A DNA stretch of 64,000 nt from Sphingobacteriia bacterium (GTDB lineage: Bacteria > Bacteroidota > Bacteroidia > Bacteroidales > UBA7960), in contig JAABRR010000001.1 in NCBI GenBank assembly GCA_011390785.1, forward strand, positions 58,742-122,741, in the 5' to 3' direction. Of the stretch, positions 40,720 to 47,399 are shown in pieces (within the stretch, counting starts at the first letter, position 1; every line of letters begins with the position of its first letter). Both the position numbers and the translations under genes were made by a program. The notes under the pieces were generated by a model. The model was not told where the DNA came from and made no database searches. It saw only the letters and a program-made list of their open reading frames with translations.

Positions 40720-42090
40720 ATGAATGATTTAAAGAAATACATTGACCAAAATCAGGATCGATTCGTTAAAGAATTATTTGATCTTATCAGAATTCCATCG
40801 GTTAGCGCCAAAGATGAACACAAACCCGACATGCTAAAAGCAGCAAACTGGCTGAAAGAAAAGCTTCTTAAAGAAGGCGTAGATAAAGCAGAAGTAATTG
40901 AAACAGAAGGCCATCCGGTGGTTTACGGAGAAAAAATGCTGAATGAAGCCTATCCCACCGTTCTGGTTTACGGGCATTATGATGTGCAACCTGCTGAACC
41001 TCTGGATTTATGGAACAGCCCGCCCTTTGAACCGGAAATTCGTGATGGCAGAATCTATGCCCGCGGTGCCAACGACGACAAAGGACAAATGTTTATGCAT
41101 ATTAAGGCCTTTGAATATTTGCTCGCTACCAATCAACTGACCTGCAATGTTAAGTTTATGATTGAAGGGGAAGAAGAAATTGGATCTCCCAGCCTTGGAA
41201 AATTCTGCGAAGACAACAAAGAAATGCTCAAAGCTGATGTTATCCTGGTATCAGACACATCAATGATTGCCCCGGATACACCTTCTATTACTACAGGCTT
41301 GCGCGGACTTGCCTACATGGAAGTGGAAGTAACCGGCCCAAGTCATGATCTGCACTCTGGCCTGTATGGCGGTGCCGTTGATAACCCCGTAAACGTTCTC
41401 TGCGAAATGATTGCCCAATTGCGCGATGAAAACAACCACATTACGATTCCTGGGTTTTATGACGATGTGCTGGAGCTCAGCCAGGAAGAAAGAGCAGAAA
41501 TGGCCAGGGCACCCTTCGATCTTAACGAATTCAAAAAGGGAATTAAAATCAAAAAAGAAGGCGGAGAAAAAGGCTACTCATCATCAGAAAGAACCGGCAT
41601 CAGGCCCAGCCTTGACGTAAACGGAATCTGGGGTGGATACACCGATAAGGGTGCCAAAACCATACTACCATCAAAAGCCTATGCCAAAATAAGTATGCGA
41701 CTGGTACCTCACCAGGAATCAAAAAAGATTGAAAAACTCTTTAAGGAGTATTTTGAATCTATTGCTCCCGAAACTGTTTCGGTTAAGGTAGAATTTTTGC
41801 ACGGTGGCGAAGGCTACGTTGCCCCTACCGACACCATCGCCTACCAGGCTGCCAGCAAAGCTTTTGAAGCAACATACGGCATTAAGCCCATACCGGTAAG
41901 AAGTGGTGGTTCGATACCTATCATTTCTCTTTTCGAAAAGATTCTGGGCATCAAATCCATCCTTATGGGATTTGGACTCGATTCAGATGCCATACACTCC
42001 CCCAACGAAAACTACTCTCTTGAGCAATTCAGAAAGGGAATCGAAACGATACCGCATTTCTATAAATATTTTGCGGAAATGAGTAAATAA
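40720..42090 (+). CDS. M20-family dipeptidase
   Basis: YGHYDVQP, ARGANDDKGQ, EGEEE, DLHSG, HSPNE. Confidence 0.95.
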   Translation: MNDLKKYIDQNQDRFVKELFDLIRIPSVSAKDEHKPDMLKAANWLKEKLLKEGVDKAEVIETEGHPVVYGEKMLNEAYPTVLVYGHYDVQPAEPLDLWNSPPFEPEIRDGRIYARGANDDKGQMFMHIKAFEYLLATNQLTCNVKFMIEGEEEIGSPSLGKFCEDNKEMLKADVILVSDTSMIAPDTPSITTGLRGLAYMEVEVTGPSHDLHSGLYGGAVDNPVNVLCEMIAQLRDENNHITIPGFYDDVLELSQEERAEMARAPFDLNEFKKGIKIKKEGGEKGYSSSERTGIRPSLDVNGIWGGYTDKGAKTILPSKAYAKISMRLVPHQESKKIEKLFKEYFESIAPETVSVKVEFLHGGEGYVAPTDTIAYQAASKAFEATYGIKPIPVRSGGSIPIISLFEKILGIKSILMGFGLDSDAIHSPNENYSLEQFRKGIETIPHFYKYFAEMSK

Positions 42091-42111
42091 ATAATATTAG
42101 ATCTTAAAATG

Positions 42112-42143
42112 AAAGCAGGCTATAAAAAATGGCCTGCTTTTTT
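42112..42143 (+). terminator. Intrinsic terminator
   Basis: AAAGCAGGC...GCCTGCTTTTTT after the dipeptidase stop. Confidence 0.85.
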
Positions 42144-42213
42144 ATTTGATATTTCCTAAGGCAGTTTCAAATTCCTTATGAAGCCTTTACCGATGCATCG
42201 AGGTTCGAAAGTA

Positions 42214-42396
42214 TTATTCTTCCCATCCAAACCAATCATCCATTTCGCGGCGGTCTCTCTTGGTGGGGCGGCCTTTTCTTTTGGCCAGTGGGTTCTCTCT
42301 GATCAGTTCCAGCTTGTGGTATTCTTCTGCCGGGGTTAGGTCTTGCATATAATCGGGCACGAGTTTGGCCCCTACCCTTTTTTCGAGCAATTGGAT
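42214..42396 (-). pseudogene. hslR: Displaced 3' half of hslR (direct repeat copy A)
   Basis: 183 bp, 173/183 identical to 45631-45813; encodes IQLLEKRVG...EMDDWFGWEE* with no 5' half. Confidence 0.92.
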
Positions 42397-42736
42397 CGCC
42401 TTTACGTCAAAGACAATTGAGATTCAAGCTTATTTTCTCTATTAGTTTTTGTTTTAAGCATAAACAATTTTAAAAAGCAAAACACTTATTCCCCACTTGT
42501 AAACCAAAATAATTGATAAATTATCATCTTAAATTTTTGGCAATTAAATGTTTTTTGATGATTTTTACCATCTATTAAACCATATTGCGATCCATTTATA
42601 AAATCTTCAAGCCAAATCAGGAAAATATAACAAAAGAAAACAAAAGGGAATTCATCAAACAGGCAATTACTCCAACAACTTCTTATCAGGTAATTCTCGT
42701 TCGTAATAGTTCCCGGAAAAATAAAACAACAAAACT

Positions 42737-43204
42737 ATGAGAAAATCATCCTTGGTTACTGCGTTCTTAATCATAGGTATATGTGTCTATGGCCAAACTG
42801 ACAATAATTCCAACAATACCCTGAAGCAAGATCAGGAAAACAGCCCGATTCTTAAAAAAACCGGCAATATTAAGTACATCGACATCAGCATCCAGCAACC
42901 CGGTGTGGAAGAATGTTTGGTTATGAGTGTTCCCCAACAGAAGATTAATGCCGATTGGATAGATATCTACCCCAATCCTACACCAGGGCATTTTACCCTT
43001 GAATTGAATCTTCACAAAACTGGTTCAAACCTAACCATTCAAATATATGACCTGGCAGGAAAACTGGTATCTAAAAGCATAGAAGTATCTGATGGCAAAC
43101 ACTTCCGCAAAGATATGGATGTAAGTCACCTGCACAAAGGGGTTTATTTTCTCCATGTTACAAGCAAGGAAGGAAGAGGCGTTAAACAAATCATAATCAA
43201 CTAA
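42737..43204 (+). CDS. Minimal T9SS type A CTD protein
   Basis: Signal peptide (VYG|Q), ~45-aa passenger ending QQPGVEEC, then IYPNP...IYDLAGK...GVYFL...KQIIIN. Confidence 0.9.
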   Translation: MRKSSLVTAFLIIGICVYGQTDNNSNNTLKQDQENSPILKKTGNIKYIDISIQQPGVEECLVMSVPQQKINADWIDIYPNPTPGHFTLELNLHKTGSNLTIQIYDLAGKLVSKSIEVSDGKHFRKDMDVSHLHKGVYFLHVTSKEGRGVKQIIIN

Positions 43205-43221
43205 AAGAAGGGGGATACACA

Positions 43222-45597
43222 ATGAAAAACACATTCAAGATAATTACAATCATTGTAGTATTGCTGGCGTTGGTTCAGAGTGCTTTTACGCAAAAAGAAT
43301 TTCATTTTGAACCTTTTACTACAGTAAATATAAACGACTCGGTGGTGATTCGCCTGAATGATTACCAGGGAGATATCCAGTGGCAAAAATCTTCTGATCT
43401 TGAGACCTGGGAAAACATTGCACAAGCCACAGTGGATACTTTGCTATTTGTTGCTAACACAAGTACCTACTTTCGGGCAGAGGTAATTGTGAGAGAATGT
43501 GATCCGTTTTATTCAGATACTACCAAAGTGGGAGTCTTTGACCTTACTACTTCAGCTGTAACAGAAATTACAACGATTTCTGCATTATCTGGTGGTACTG
43601 TGATTTCAGATGGAGGCGCACCAATAACCGCTCGTGGGGTTGTATGGAGTACATCCCCCTATCCCACAATCGACAATAACGATGGCTATACTGTTGATGG
43701 TCAAGATTTAGGCGAGTTTATCAGCAACATTACTGACCTTGCACCCGAAACATCTTATTATGTTCGGTCTTATGCTACCAACATTGCAGGCACAGGTTAT
43801 GGTGAGTCTAAACTATTTACTACATTAAATGATATCCCTGAATCATACACTCTTACCTTACAGGTAGCCCCCGAGGGCACCGGCCTGGTTTCTGGTTCAG
43901 GAGAATTCGCAGAAGGTGCCGCAGTTACCATAACTGCTACATCTAACCAAAACTACCAATTTGTAAACTGGACCGGCGATACCGAACACATTGCTGATGC
44001 AAACGCTGCAATCACTACCCTAACCATGCCAGCACAAAATATAACGCTTGCAGCTAATTTTGAAGAAGAAAATGAAGGATGTGATGACACTGAAATAGTA
44101 GAAGCTCTCAATCCCGCCACCGGCAAAATCTGGATGGACCGCAACCTGGGTGCCTGCCGTGCCGCTACCAGCAGCACCGATTCAGAAGCTTTTGGCCACC
44201 TATATCAATGGGGAAGGGCTGCCGACGGGCACCAAAGAAGGACTTCAGACACAACATCAACCTTAAGCAACTCTAACACCCCCGGACATAATAAATTTAT
44301 TGTTACTGGCCTCATTCCACCTAATGATTGGCGCACTCCCCAAAACCATAATCTTTGGCAGGGAGTATTAGGTATAAATAATCCATGCCCGTCAGGGTAT
44401 CGTTTACCCACAGATGCAGAGTTAAATGCCGAGCGCCAAAGCTGGAGCAGCAATGACGCTGCCGGAGCCTTCAATTCCCCCATTAAATTACCTATGGCAG
44501 GTCTCCGAAGCCTCAATAATGGTAAAATTTCAAGTGCAGGCTCTCTAGGCATCTATTGGTCCAGTACTGTTTCGGGTTCTGACTCGGGGCGCCTGGATTT
44601 CAACAGTAACACTGCTGGAGTAAGTAGCCGCCCCCGGGCTAGTGGACTTTCTGTCCGTTGCCTTAAGGCTGAAAATCAACAACCTGATACTTATACTCTT
44701 TCGCTGGAAATTACACCTGAAGGTAGTGGCCAGGTTTCAGGCGAAGGAGATTACGCAGAAGGTTTAACTGTTTTCATTTCGGCTATACCTAATCTAAACT
44801 ACCGATTTGTAAACTGGACTGGTGATACCGGTCACATTGCTGATGCAAACGCTTCAAGCACTAACTTAACTATGCCGGCAGAAAACATTAACCTTACAGC
44901 CAATTTTGAAGAAGACGAAAATGGTAATCCAAACATTATATACGGTGAAGGCGTAACAGATATTGACGGCAATTTCTATCCCAGCGTTATTATAGGAAAC
45001 CAGGAGTGGATGGCCAGGAATCTGAATGTTACACACGACGCCAATGGCAATGCTATATCACGCTATTGTTATGACAATAATGAAACATATTGCGACCTTT
45101 ATGGTGGGCTTTATACCTGGCAATCTGTTATGAATGGCGAAGGAAGCAGTAACACCATTCCAAGCAATGTACAGGGTATTTGCCCTACAGGTTGGCATCT
45201 ACCCAGCAATTCAGAATGGAATGTGTTAGTTAATAATGTAGTTGAACAGGGATATCCCAATGCATCAGATAATCCCAATGGTGCTGGCTCCGCATTAAAA
45301 TCCTGCCGACAGGTACTCTCTCCTTTGGGCGGGGATTGTGCCACATCAGAGCACCCTTATTGGATCTGGGCAAATAACTTTGGTACAGATGAATTTGGAT
45401 TTTCAGCCCTTCCAGGGGGCTATCGGTATCCCAATGGAGCGTATTACTCTCTTGGCTATGAAGGCAATTGGTGGTCATCTTCCATTGATTTCTCAAATTG
45501 GGTCTGGTTCCGAAAAATATACAACATTTACGGAAATGTTGATCAAAGCAGTTACACTGATGATTATGGGTTTTCCGTCCGATGTGTCAGGGATTAG
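43222..45597 (+). CDS. FISUMP (Fibrobacter succinogenes major paralogous) domain surface protein with Ig/FN3-like and InlB-B-like repeats
   Basis: Signal peptide; GDIQWQKS..W domain; ARGVVWST/YYVRSYATN FN3-like; WMDRNLG..LYQWGR..SVRCLK; IGNQEWMARNL..YGGLYTW..ICPTGWHLPS..GFSVRCVRD. Confidence 0.9.
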   Translation: MKNTFKIITIIVVLLALVQSAFTQKEFHFEPFTTVNINDSVVIRLNDYQGDIQWQKSSDLETWENIAQATVDTLLFVANTSTYFRAEVIVRECDPFYSDTTKVGVFDLTTSAVTEITTISALSGGTVISDGGAPITARGVVWSTSPYPTIDNNDGYTVDGQDLGEFISNITDLAPETSYYVRSYATNIAGTGYGESKLFTTLNDIPESYTLTLQVAPEGTGLVSGSGEFAEGAAVTITATSNQNYQFVNWTGDTEHIADANAAITTLTMPAQNITLAANFEEENEGCDDTEIVEALNPATGKIWMDRNLGACRAATSSTDSEAFGHLYQWGRAADGHQRRTSDTTSTLSNSNTPGHNKFIVTGLIPPNDWRTPQNHNLWQGVLGINNPCPSGYRLPTDAELNAERQSWSSNDAAGAFNSPIKLPMAGLRSLNNGKISSAGSLGIYWSSTVSGSDSGRLDFNSNTAGVSSRPRASGLSVRCLKAENQQPDTYTLSLEITPEGSGQVSGEGDYAEGLTVFISAIPNLNYRFVNWTGDTGHIADANASSTNLTMPAENINLTANFEEDENGNPNIIYGEGVTDIDGNFYPSVIIGNQEWMARNLNVTHDANGNAISRYCYDNNETYCDLYGGLYTWQSVMNGEGSSNTIPSNVQGICPTGWHLPSNSEWNVLVNNVVEQGYPNASDNPNGAGSALKSCRQVLSPLGGDCATSEHPYWIWANNFGTDEFGFSALPGGYRYPNGAYYSLGYEGNWWSSSIDFSNWVWFRKIYNIYGNVDQSSYTDDYGFSVRCVRD
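43846..44922 (+). repeat. Two intragenic ~76-aa repeats (43846-44073 and 44692-44922)
   Basis: YTL.L...PEG.G.VSG.G..AEG..V.I.A..N.NY.FVNWTGDT.HIADANA..T.LTMPA.NI.L.ANFEE shared by both copies. Confidence 0.9.
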
Positions 45598-45630
45598 TAG
45601 ATTTGATTTGCTCTGAAAATTAATAACAAG

Positions 45631-46005
45631 TCAATCCTCCCACCCAAACCACTCGTCCATTTCGCGGCGGTCTCTTTTGGTGGGGCGCCCTTTTCTTTTG
45701 GCCAGGGGGTTCTCTCTGATCAGTTCCAGCTTGTGGTATTCTTCTGCCGGGGTGAGGTCTTGCATATAATCGGGCACGAGTTTGGCCCCTACCCTTTTTT
45801 CGAGCAATTGGATAACCTTAACCGTTTTGGTAATGGGCCCGAGATGGATTGAGATCACCTGGTCTGTTTTCAGCTCTCGTGAAGGTTTAACGGTATCATC
45901 ATTGATCTTGACCTTCCCGGCCCGGCAGGCATCTGTAGCCTGGCTGCGGGTTTTAAACAACCGAACAGCCCAAAGCCACTTGTCTATTCTTACTGATTTT
46001 TCCAT
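45631..46005 (-). CDS. hslR: Ribosome-associated heat shock protein Hsp15 (S4 domain)
   Basis: RIDKWLWAVRLFKTRS and GRPTKRDRR motifs. Confidence 0.95.
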   Translation of the reverse strand: MEKSVRIDKWLWAVRLFKTRSQATDACRAGKVKINDDTVKPSRELKTDQVISIHLGPITKTVKVIQLLEKRVGAKLVPDYMQDLTPAEEYHKLELIRENPLAKRKGRPTKRDRREMDEWFGWED

Positions 46006-46094
46006 AGTCTAAAATGGAATTTAAATACTCCTCCTGCAAGATTTGCTCTTTATCAATCCTGTTATGCTTCCTGGCAACCCTTTAACCGGAAACC

Positions 46095-47399
46095 TTACTT
46101 CTGCCTGAAGAAAACACGGATAGGGACCCCGGTAAAATTCCAGTTTTTACGGATCTGGTTTTCCAAAAATCGCATATACGATTCACGAACATATTGCGGA
46201 AGGTTACAGAAAAAGGCAAAAGTAGGATAATGGGTTGGCAATTGCGTTATGTACTTAATTTTTACATACTTATCTTTTACCGACGGGGGTGGATTGTTTT
46301 CGATAATAGGCAACAGTATCTCGTTTAGTTTACTGGTAGCAATTTTCTGCGTCCGGTTTTGATAAACTTCTACAGCCGTTTCCAGGGCTTTTAAGATCCG
46401 TTGCTTTTTGGTTACCGAAGTAAAAATAATAGGCACATCGGTAAAAGGGGCGATCTTCTGAAGTATCTTTTCACGAAATGCTTCTACTGTTTTGTGGTCT
46501 TTCTCAATAACGTCCCATTTGTTTACCAAAATAACCACCCCTTTGTTGTTCCGGGTAGCCAGGCTGAAGATATTCACATCCTGCCCTTCAAGGCCTTCAT
46601 TGGCATCAACAAGCACCAGGCAAACATCTGCACTTTCAATGGCCCTGATGGAGCGCATTACAGAATAAAACTCAATATTTTCGTGTACCTTCCCTTTTTT
46701 TCTGAGGCCGGCCGTATCCACCAGGAAAAAATCGAATCCAAAACTTTTATAGCGGGTATAAATGGTATCTCGGGTGGTGCCTGCAATAGGGGTAACAATA
46801 TTTCGTTCCTGCCCTATCAGTGCATTTATCAATGAAGATTTACCCACATTGGGCCTCCCAATGATGGCAAATTTGGGAATATCTTCCACATCTTCCATCG
46901 GGATTTTTTCGAGAGCAGCCACCACTTCATCCAGCAGATCGCCGGTACCACTGCCATTGATAGAAGAAACGCCAAATACATCACCCAGGCCCAGAGCATA
47001 GAAATCAGATATGCCGGCAAGCCGGGCATTGTTATCGGCCTTGTTGGCCACAATAAAAACCTTCTTTCCTGATCGGCGCAGCATTTCGGCCACATCTTCA
47101 TCAAGAGGGGTAACACCTTCCATAATATCTACAAGGAACAGTATTATTGAGGCTTCTTCTACAGCAAGCTGCACCTGTTTGCGGATCTCTTCTTCAAAGG
47201 TATCGTCAGAGCCATAAACATAGCCACCTGTATCAATAACCGAAAACTCCAGGCCGTTCCAGTCACTCTTTCCATAATGTCTGTCGCGCGTAACTCCCGC
47301 CGAAGGATCTACTATAGCCATACGTGTTTGGGTGAGGCGATTAAAGAAAGTTGATTTACCTACATTAGGCCTTCCAACCAAAGCTACTATGTTTGACAT
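46095..47399 (-). CDS. der: Ribosome biogenesis GTPase Der
   Basis: Two GRPNVGKS G-domains, DTGG/DTAG, NKAD/NKWD, KH-like C-terminus. Confidence 0.98.

Follow-up and report, generated by a model that had tools for sequence, protein, structure and literature searches.

Cargo proteins of the T9SS 'invariably possess' a CTD, as the available part of one account puts it (PMC8545088). According to the accessible text of PMC10994853, the type A CTD binds loops of PorV within the SprA pore, and in P. gingivalis PorU removes the CTD and attaches A-LPS (PMC8545088, same part). The canonical type A cargos, such as P. gingivalis RgpB and F. johnsoniae RemA/RemZ, combine a Sec signal peptide with a C-terminal type A beta-sandwich CTD. 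The small protein encoded by gene 1 of the locus described here has the same two elements but, unlike these cargos, the CTD protein has no passenger of its own, and the function lies with a second polypeptide that lacks a CTD, encoded by gene 2. In the arrangement proposed below the cargo would be tethered by its N-terminus, whereas a canonical type A cargo is tethered by its C-terminus. No description of T9SS export of a protein without its own CTD, nor of such a split carrier/cargo system, was found in the literature searches.

Two other kinds of system show partial likeness. Type B cargos with a PorP/SprF-like partner, exemplified by SprB-SprF in the available text of PMC9143113, also rely on an adjacent dedicated partner gene for export or anchorage. 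However, SprB keeps its own type B CTD and its partner is an outer-membrane barrel, whereas the partner is here a soluble carrier of ~150 aa with a type A CTD. Neither a type B CTD nor a PorP-SprF module was found at the locus: the best match of gene 1 is TIGR04183, type A, and the neighbours of the pair are housekeeping genes (an M20 peptidase, an S4-domain protein and an EngA-type GTPase). In Tat 'hitchhiker' export and peroxisomal piggyback import, as outlined in the accessible part of PMC9251779, a folded complex likewise crosses a membrane on the signal of one subunit. The machinery and the membrane are different, and here both subunits have Sec signals and would share only the outer-membrane signal. 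The resemblance is one of mode of working and not of family membership.

The DNA examined, referred to as the window, is a stretch of 64,000 nucleotides, and the coordinates of the pair are given on its numbering. The features of the locus are the following.

42218 to 42405, minus strand: left copy of a 188-nt direct repeat, 94% identical to 45635-45822; a duplicated 3' fragment of the S4-domain gene, at the left edge of the insert
42737 to 43204, plus strand: gene 1, the putative carrier (155 aa), an ORF with a signal peptide, a disordered passenger containing the docking peptide, and a type A CTD (Pfam, NCBIfam, AF2 model)
42737 to 42796, plus strand: signal peptide of gene 1, residues 1-20 (sequence reading; AF2 helix 4-18), probably cleaved between VYG and Q
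42863 to 42919, plus strand: predicted docking peptide, residues 43-61, GNIKYIDISIQQPGVEECL (complex-model interface; invariant alignment columns)
42956 to 43201, plus strand: type A T9SS CTD of gene 1, residues 74-155, a seven-strand beta-sandwich (Pfam 77-154; AF2 strands E75-154)
43205 to 43221, plus strand: spacer of 17 nt between gene 1 and gene 2, in which no terminator-like site was found
43222 to 45597, plus strand: gene 2, the putative cargo (791 aa), an ORF with a signal peptide, an N-terminal Ig-like docking domain, a middle beta domain and two InlB-B-repeat + FISUMP units, without CTD (Pfam, NCBIfam)
43309 to 43539, plus strand: predicted Ig-like docking domain of gene 2, residues ~30-106 (invariant G50, W54, R85 and C93; AF2 pLDDT 89.7; complex-model interface)
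43837 to 44676, plus strand: first InlB B-repeat (~206-283) and first FISUMP domain (~290-485), with approximate boundaries (internal direct repeat; Pfam)
44701 to 45591, plus strand: second InlB B-repeat (494-565) and second FISUMP domain (589-790), with the free C-terminus ...SVRCVRD (best Pfam stretches; TIGR02145 at 582-791)
45635 to 45822, minus strand: second (right) copy of the 188-nt direct repeat, which lies within the intact S4-domain gene (45631 to 46005, minus strand)

The two ORFs agree exactly with the layout given by an earlier sequence-only reading of this DNA, in which products of 155 and 791 aa were encoded 17 nt apart. A frameshift fusion of the two genes was considered and rejected, since they are in different reading frames, a CTD must be C-terminal, and the relatives also have two separate ORFs, in one case in reversed order. 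The Bacteroidetes -7 promoter motif is TAnnTTTG; it has zero plus-strand matches in 42406-42736 and is not enriched across the window (89 found, 85 expected), nor are sigma-70-like sites (11 found against 9.4 expected from shuffles).

The CTD of gene 1 was recognised both as Por_Secre_tail by Pfam (PF18962, residues 77-154, E 7.7e-18, 65 bits against a cut-off of 27) and as a type A sorting domain by NCBIfam (TIGR04183, 51.9 bits against a cut-off of 23). The hydrophobic N-terminus, MRKSSLVTAFLIIGICVYGQ, reads as a Sec signal peptide, and C60, within ...KYIDISIQQPGVEEC..., is the sole cysteine of the mature protein, C16 being inside the signal peptide. The earlier reading had named these parts correctly, and only its passenger length of ~45 aa had to be corrected, to ~55 aa (residues 21-74). 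With a CTD at its extreme C-terminus, a Sec signal and a host that encodes SprA (2673 bits), PorV (505 bits) and PorU (1241 bits), each above the curated cut-off, gene 1 has the three features expected from its sequence of a type A T9SS substrate. When gene 1 was modelled alone with AF2, the CTD was confident (residues 75-154; block-mean pLDDT 89-97 from residue 71), while residues 19-74, including the docking peptide, had no secondary structure and a block-mean pLDDT of 44-66, falling below 50 at residues 22-37. The region is thus predicted to be disordered on its own, which argues against an independently folded passenger.

Gene 2 belongs to the FISUMP family (TIGR02145, 157.6 bits against 41.65; PF09603, 134.9 bits against 33.9). 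Pfam finds two units in it, each consisting of a Flg_new_2 (InlB B-repeat) and a Fib_succ_major/FISUMP domain, the latter scoring 133.5 and 134.9 bits, and the duplication is also visible as an internal direct repeat (43837-44069 against 44683-44915, 75%). The protein ends with the second FISUMP domain (...GFSVRCVRD), and no T9SS sorting domain of type A, B or C was found in it at E<=0.1 in Pfam or NCBIfam. A lipoprotein route was also considered and rejected because the signal peptide has no lipobox cysteine; the first cysteine of gene 2 is C93, the only one of the N-terminal domain, within VRECDPFYSD. The signal peptide, the missing CTD and lipobox, the SVRCVRD end and the position of C93 are thus all as the earlier reading described them. 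The N-terminal Ig-like domain itself matches no Pfam or NCBIfam family. Modelled alone, it folds with six strands, and a Foldseek search with it returned only generic Ig domains (best E 1.1e-3).

If gene 1 serves gene 2, homologues of the two should occur together, and their adjacency across Bacteroidota was the check suggested by the sequence-only reading. Among 47 genes starting with the cargo Ig-like domain, from many families of Bacteroidia, 44 have an associated small CTD gene, which is complete and just upstream in 38 cases, cut by a contig or locus end in three, downstream in one, and at the head of a tandem array in two. The remaining three cargo-domain genes have no partner, and each carries its own C-terminal CTD. 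The main set behind these figures comprised 52 rows with an N-terminal cargo domain, reduced to 41 unique genes at <=90% identity. In 33 of the 41 a complete same-strand CTD ORF lies -41 to 61 nt upstream, the negative gaps resulting from the mechanical choice of start codons. The CTD ORF is cut by a contig or locus end in three (one of which was completed through overlapping contig ends), the carrier lies 147 nt downstream of the cargo in one, two are later members of carrier-headed tandem cargo arrays, one carrier preceding three cargo genes, and two have no partner and their own CTD. Six extra loci added five pairs and one partner-less protein with its own CTD. Por_Secre_tail was found in none of the 13 complete partnered cargos scanned, and the cargos of the relatives have ordinary signal peptides without lipobox. 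Their C-termini vary between FISUMP, Lcl_C, ALK/LTK glycine-rich, fn3 and no recognised family, a variability that the earlier reading had anticipated.

Searches starting from the carrier gave a similar picture. A profile of the docking peptide had 13 matches in 10 of 61 genomes; ten of them adjoin a cargo gene, another connects to a contig with a cargo and the last two extend beyond the end of their contigs, so that none of the 13 is a docking peptide shown to lack a cargo gene. Against 1.84 billion representative proteins the profile gave 28 matches at E<=1e-3. Of these, 26 are proteins of 99-169 aa in which the motif starts at residues 20-56, and Por_Secre_tail directly follows the motif in eight of ten proteins tested. 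The passenger used as a plain homologue query retrieved three proteins only, the word index being too coarse for a 30-aa motif. As a genomic background, 10 of 2,831 ORFs of >=200 aa (0.35%) have a CTD ORF of <=400 aa within -60 to 200 nt upstream, and five of those ten are themselves carrier/cargo pairs of this split type. The pairing of genes of the gene 1 and gene 2 type is far beyond chance. These linkage counts include many loci from related genomes, which are not independent, and rest on a home-made CTD profile and mechanically picked start codons. Six CTD-less proteins of ~500 aa contain the same Ig domain at residues ~100-190 with no CTD gene adjacent, which indicates that an adjacent carrier is not universal for the domain. 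A control based on the genes upstream of proteins with an internal copy of the domain was weak, as only about seven rows had enough upstream sequence, one of them with a CTD ORF, and the genomic background given above took its place. Gene neighbourhood is in any case a functional link and not proof of co-transport.

In the docking peptide, Q54, V57 and C60 are invariant and Y47 and I52 nearly so, according to the alignments of the docking-peptide profile and of the carriers, and in the cargo docking domain G50, W54, R85 and C93 are invariant in 33 of 33 sequences. The two cysteines that the earlier reading expected to be co-conserved are therefore both fixed, C60 in 21 of 21 short carriers and C93 in all of these cargo domains. 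Carriers of the long type (~200 aa) have no cysteine at the position of C60.

A model of the carrier-cargo complex gave ipSAE values of 0.69, 0.67 and 0.68, the best of three controls reaching 0.00. Of 80 solved complexes 58 attained the mark set for ipSAE, as did 2 of 110 mismatched pairs; these counts are rough since our own alignments were used. At least 88% of the contacts were common to the runs, with a partner pLDDT of at least 77. The model pairs carrier residues 46-52 with cargo strand 40-45 and brings I48, I50 and I52 into contact with the F strand and the 96-101 segment of the cargo. The predicted interface comprises carrier residues 43-54, 57 and 59-61 and cargo residues 39-50, 84-86, 90-93 and 96-99, and thus includes the invariant Q54, V57 and C60 of the one and G50, R85 and C93 of the other. 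These are the segments that the sequence-only reading had named, and the score (0.68 against 0.00) agrees with its proposal. As Foldseek matches only generic Ig domains, the result is unlikely to reflect memory of a similar complex.

The same reading had also proposed strand complementation. The strand contact is reproduced by the model, but the rescue of an incomplete fold appears unlikely, as the cargo domain is modelled confidently alone (pLDDT 89.7), though a model is no measure of stability. The contact would therefore be an edge-strand augmentation burying I48, I50 and I52, and the donated strand is predicted not to be structurally obligatory. In donor-strand systems, that is, chaperone-usher pili and the type V FimA/Mfa fimbriae of Bacteroidota (for example PMC4789730), a foreign beta-strand likewise joins an Ig-like sheet and buries alternating hydrophobic residues. 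A strand of this kind from a second polypeptide is present here in the model only. Unlike the pili, the locus has no polymer, chaperone or usher, the acceptor is predicted to fold without the strand, and the donor is the carrier of a secretion tag.

From the sequences and the model, a C60-C93 disulfide is plausible in this subfamily. Elsewhere such a bond is weakly supported; 10-11 of the 33 cargo domains, including that of a paralogous pair in the same genome (module B), have on the first strand a second cysteine able to form an internal bond with the equivalent of C93. The mature products of gene 2 and gene 1 have 11 and one cysteines, an even total, and the whole-protein parity is mixed among the relatives.

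The explanation that we consider probable, on the basis of the sequences and the model, is a split T9SS tag, in which the small carrier exports and anchors the CTD-less cargo through the docked peptide. Both proteins would reach the periplasm through Sec, the carrier consisting of just a flexible peptide and a type A CTD. Its residues 43-61 would add an extra parallel edge strand to the N-terminal Ig-like domain of the cargo, pairing with residues 40-45 and burying I48, I50 and I52 against the F strand and the CDPFYSD loop, and the C60-C93 disulfide probably locks the contact in this subfamily. The carrier CTD would then engage PorV/SprA, and the attached cargo would be drawn out behind it, N-terminal domain first. 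If PorU processes the CTD as in Porphyromonas gingivalis, a glycolipid-linked leash of ~50 aa would remain on the surface and tether the cargo N-terminally; the FISUMP lectin-like domains and the free C-terminus would then face outward. The idea of a CTD supplied in trans, put forward by the sequence-only reading, is thus supported in silico by the pairing, the CTD being present either in the partner or in the protein itself, the invariant residues and the model, while binding in the cell, the disulfide, export by co-transport, CTD cleavage and anchoring are steps that we infer.

Alternatively, the carrier might be a surface anchor only, secreted alone by the T9SS and fixed, on which a cargo that leaves the cell otherwise (by vesicles or lysis) docks later. 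The predicted binding and the adjacency fit this equally well, and CTD-less proteins found outside the cells of T9SS-bearing Bacteroidetes have been ascribed to vesicles in the available text of PMC6247017. However, each of the three proteins that start with the domain and lack a partner has a CTD in cis, and this either/or pattern suggests that a CTD is needed for the export of the cargo itself. The cargos, with ordinary signal peptides and no lipobox, also have no other dedicated route that is evident, and we regard an anchor of this kind as unlikely. The two genes might also be independent, co-transcribed operon partners, a T9SS surface peptide and a FISUMP protein located in the periplasm or elsewhere, that do not bind each other, the model being a false positive. 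Adjacency alone suits any operon and structure models can join chains without real binding, but the controls at 0.00, the coincidence of the invariant residues of both proteins with the predicted interface, the either/or CTD pattern and the joint change of motif classes in carrier and cargo (module A against module B) all speak against it, as does a carrier without a folded passenger that could act alone; this possibility appears quite improbable.

Still less probable is a periplasmic escort or regulator, binding the N-terminal domain of the cargo to hold, time or remove it, for instance to dispose of a surplus, and not to display it. It draws on the same binding evidence; however, FISUMP, Lcl_C, PKD and fn3 domains are typical of surface binding proteins, and one carrier heading three cargo genes is easier to reconcile with a common export tag than with a stoichiometric inhibitor. 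That gene 1 is the decayed head and tail of a larger CTD protein beside an unrelated gene, as its unusual shortness and the location in a recent insertion edged by a duplicated gene fragment might suggest, can be rejected with near certainty, since dozens of loci from many families show the same short architecture and invariant motif, each time next to this cargo domain.

A split tag of the kind we favour would suggest that some Bacteroidota export and anchor surface proteins with the secretion signal on a separate partner. If true, it would break the rule that every T9SS cargo carries its own CTD, and secretomes predicted from CTDs would be too small. It would also offer a testable explanation for CTD-less proteins found outside the cells of T9SS bacteria, such as MYP_327, 'abundant in the extracellular fraction despite lacking a CTD' (PMC6247017, available part), or the non-CTD peptidases of F. 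columnare (PMC9936825, available part), and would show a display route for domains such as FISUMP and Lcl_C, whose C-terminus must stay free. As the pair is small and sharply defined, the idea is directly testable, and the ~20-aa docking peptide with its ~80-aa acceptor domain could become a two-part surface-display tool. More tentatively, and with somewhat less than even confidence, the pairs may represent a general modular 'dock-and-carry' branch of the T9SS, with tiny CTD carriers, short mutually orthogonal docking peptides, N-terminal tethering and several cargos per carrier. Such a branch would explain some of the CTD-less exoproteins of Bacteroidota and provide a natural plug-in peptide tag for surface display.

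The pair appears, from its sequence context, to move as a unit and to be a recent insertion at this site. It lies in a 3.2-kb insert between the 188-nt duplications, which is missing from the site in 20 of 20 genomes of the same genus, and the left repeat copy matches residues 58-124 of the S4 protein at 91% (tblastn). One sediment contig spans 42367-45736, and no joint skipping the module between the repeats was found in contigs of four sediment runs over 41000-47000. The genome contains further pairs. Pairs of the Ig-domain type lie on contigs C75 and C115 and a fragment of a putative docking gene on C5, the pair on C115 being module B, a paralogue that differs in motif class and in cargo. 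A second, unrelated type of pair, with a 'GG.ASGSGGSVSYS.GQ' carrier and a 'SYQAV(I/V)RD' cargo, occurs three times in the genome.

The module occupies the following window positions:

42218-42405 and 45635-45822: 188-nt direct repeat flanking the module, 94% identity
42737..43204, + strand: gene 1, the carrier ORF, 155 aa
43222..45597, + strand: gene 2, the cargo ORF, 791 aa
43837-44069 and 44683-44915: internal direct repeat of gene 2, 233 nt, 75% identity

The ORF calls reproduced the layout of the sequence-only reading, with a spacing of 17 nt and a change of frame between the genes. The type A CTD assigned to gene 1 was confirmed by TIGR04183 (51.9 bits, cut-off 23) and by Por_Secre_tail over residues 77-154 (65 bits, cut-off 27; Pfam), and C60 is indeed the single Cys of its mature part. 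When gene 1 was modelled alone from a 21-row alignment, residues 75-154 formed a seven-strand CTD (block-mean pLDDT 89-97 from residue 71) and residues 19-74 were without secondary structure (block-mean pLDDT 44-66, with residues 22-37 below 50). Because this segment is unstructured in the model, gene 1 is predicted to consist of a secretion tag preceded by a flexible peptide, with no folded passenger.

Gene 2, likewise as first read, matches none of the T9SS sorting-domain types in Pfam or NCBIfam and has no lipobox, its first Cys being residue 93, the only one of its first domain, and it ends in ...SVRCVRD. Two units of InlB-B-repeat plus FISUMP were identified (Pfam, NCBIfam), and the internal 233-nt repeat is evidence that they originated in a tandem duplication. 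In the model, residues ~30-106 fold into an Ig-like domain of six strands (pLDDT 89.7), and the domain models well as a single chain, which counts against a structural need for the carrier strand. This docking domain has no family in Pfam or NCBIfam, and Foldseek against the PDB returned generic immunoglobulin domains only (best E 1.1e-3, TM at most 0.72). The precomputed Pfam annotation lists PF26707 for gene 2 and two relatives; as relatives with the common N-domain lack it, this family probably covers the middle region (residues ~107-205) and not the docking domain. Ig-like domains of the gene 2 type were found in 231 of the 401 sampled genomes of the class (a tally including the unpublished G154 and G239); in the majority of these genomes they form an internal repeat within giant adhesins.

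Linkage of the two genes was examined from the cargo side in a census of genes with the Ig-like domain immediately behind the signal peptide. The 61 related genomes, public MAG contigs and the 401 genomes of the class were searched; the MAG contigs come from uncultured Bacteroidales or Bacteroidetes of sediments, one being binned as Cloacimonadota. Every ORF of the loci was scanned with two profiles, one for the CTD (alignment A2) and one for the domain (A3). The 52 rows obtained were reduced to 41 unique genes (at most 90% identity across the first 110 residues), many of whose loci are kin and hence not independent.

Arrangement of the 41 unique cargo genes
33/41: complete CTD ORF on the same strand, 120-380 aa, its end lying -41 to +61 nt upstream of the cargo start
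3/41: CTD ORF cut by the contig or locus end (L006, L008, L047)
1/41: inverted order (L012; L107, G046:C118:1-2594), a 338-aa FISUMP cargo with a 133-aa carrier 147 nt downstream
2/41: second or third cargo in a carrier-headed array
2/41: partner-less, each with a Por_Secre_tail at its C-terminus (L018, 41.3 bits; L029, 43.7 bits; cut-off 27)

The carrier ORF of L006 was completed from a second contig, whose end overlaps it with identical sequence. At L111 (G356:C44:19000-27000), three cargos of 798, 819 and 807 aa stand in tandem behind a single long-type carrier; each has the docking domain at its N-terminus and is FISUMP-like at its end. This arrangement suggests that a single carrier serves several cargos. 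Another twenty regions found in the class search yielded five pairs (gaps of -4 to 40 nt) and one partner-less protein, from another family, that bears a CTD itself (41.6 bits). Overall, 44 of 47 cargo-domain genes have a linked carrier gene, and none of their complete ORFs contains a CTD; the remaining three have no carrier and bear the CTD in cis, so that the adjacency expected from the sequence-only reading was borne out. Por_Secre_tail was absent from all 13 complete partnered cargos scanned with Pfam. As a background, 10 of the 2,831 ORFs of at least 200 aa in the genome of the window (0.35%) have a CTD ORF of at most 400 aa just upstream, and five of these ten are themselves pairs of the carrier-cargo sort. 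Counting against the pattern, six CTD-less proteins of ~500 aa with the domain at residues ~100-190 had no CTD neighbour; the family at L117, L119-L121, L123 and L124 consists of CTD-less proteins of ~490-520 aa starting with '...QSVGINTNTP..SS.LE..', with the Ig-like domain at ~100-190 and no adjacent CTD gene. L034 (PWNZ01000152.1), labelled Candidatus Cloacimonadota, carries a pair with 76% identity to the cargo domain of the window and is probably a mis-binned Bacteroidota contig.

Starting from the carrier side, a docking-peptide profile of 33 columns (A7) gave 13 matches in 10 of the 61 related genomes. Ten adjoin a cargo gene, one lies at a contig end overlapping the start of a cargo contig and two run off contig ends (G000:C5, G007:C449); no solitary docking peptide was established among them. 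Against 1.84 billion representative proteins, A7 had 28 matches at E<=1e-3, 26 of them in proteins of 99-169 aa with the motif starting at residues 20-56. Por_Secre_tail stood immediately behind the motif in eight of the ten scanned; of the other two, one (99 aa) matched nothing in Pfam and may be a fragment, and one, repetitive and 356 aa long, gave matches that were weak and unrelated and is likely spurious.

Both cysteines are conserved as foreseen. C60 is invariant in the 21 short-type carriers, in which P55 is nearly so, and in the close family (A7) Q54 and V57 are also invariant and Y47 and I52 nearly invariant. On the other side, C93 is invariant in all 33 partnered cargo domains, as are G50, W54 and R85. 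The carriers of distant families follow a common plan, a signal peptide and then a strand of alternating hydrophobic residues, with a Q-x-P end in most; in the long-type carriers (~200 aa) a PKD-like domain separates this strand from the CTD. The cargo C-termini vary, again as anticipated, and comprise FISUMP, Lcl_C, ALK/LTK glycine-rich plus PKD, fn3, or no known family.

A complex was modelled from the cargo domain (A5) and the mature part of gene 1 (residues 21-155, A6). Its ipSAE values were 0.69, 0.67 and 0.68, versus 0.00 for the best of three controls; 58 of 80 solved complexes attain this mark, as do 2 of 110 mismatched pairs, both counts being rough here as our own alignments were used. 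The runs had at least 88% of contacts in common, with partner pLDDT of at least 77. The confident interface comprises carrier residues 43-54, 57 and 59-61 and gene 2 residues 31, 33, 35-36, 39-50, 78, 84-86, 88, 90-93, 96-99, 101 and 103, and thus includes both C60 and C93. In the model, the lowest-error pairs place carrier residues 46-50 in register with cargo residues 40-45 as a parallel strand, and I48, I50 and I52 pack on the cargo F strand and the CDPFYSD segment. This predicted interface matches the positions of the invariant residues in both families, and the model supports binding of the carrier peptide to the cargo domain. The proposed C60-C93 disulfide fits the subfamily of the window, with one Cys per side, but three observations speak against a general disulfide: a second Cys lies on the first strand in 10-11 of the 33 cargo domains, long-type carriers lack a Cys at the C60 position, and Cys parity is mixed.

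The best reading of the pair is carriage in trans. In the periplasm, the carrier peptide would dock onto the first domain of the cargo, and PorV would take up the carrier CTD inside SprA, as it does with ordinary T9SS substrates (PMC10994853). The cargo would then trail the carrier like beads on a string, its N-terminal domain leading. If PorU acts as in P. gingivalis (PMC8545088), a short glycolipid-linked leash would tether the cargo N-terminus, which would suit FISUMP and Lcl_C domains, these being chain-terminal in cargo proteins. A disulfide, we infer, would strengthen the joint against the pull of export. The T9SS machinery is already known, the split signal is not; the literature searches gave no account of a T9SS signal that resides on a separate protein, though supplementary secretome tables could hold relevant CTD-less proteins.

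The genome of the window encodes PorU, PorV and SprA, all well above curated cut-offs, and ~133 CTD ORFs. The module lies among housekeeping genes (M20 peptidase, S4-domain protein, EngA-type GTPase, PFK). The flanking 188-nt repeat is a duplicate of the 3' end of the S4-domain gene, its left copy being dead, and the 3.2 kb between the copies contain both genes but no integrase or transposase. The EngA-S4 pair is kept in 20 of 20 same-genus genomes, none of which has the module at this site, and the M20 gene directly adjoins the S4 gene in two of them. Since the site lacks the module in these genomes, gene 1 and gene 2 must have arrived together, and the module is a recent 3.2-kb insertion.

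Two further docking-peptide loci were found in the same genome:

L001 (C115:1-6000), - strand: carrier 2536-2940 and cargo 2-2524, a paralogous pair, motif ILVLQLPDPC
L002 (contig C5), ~200 to 1, - strand: third docking-peptide gene, cut by the contig end

The C115 carrier has 134 aa; 11 nt downstream of it begins a cargo of at least 841 aa that runs off the contig and has a two-Cys acceptor domain and a body unrelated to gene 2. The C5 fragment (…NIKYIDISIQQSGVDEC…) shows 48% identity to gene 1 residues 10-68, and the assembled sequence stops short of its CTD and any cargo. An unrelated type of small-CTD plus CTD-less pair is present in three copies, on contigs C67, C29 and C140 (the last at L003:2168-3602). 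Its carrier is a CTD protein of 159-162 aa with the motif 'GG.ASGSGGSVSYS.GQ...GVQQPYEISVV', and its CTD-less cargo, which starts with '...SYQAV(I/V)RD', lies 13-134 nt behind; the C140 cargo, the one scanned, matched no Pfam family. This second type may represent a further docking system built on the same principle.
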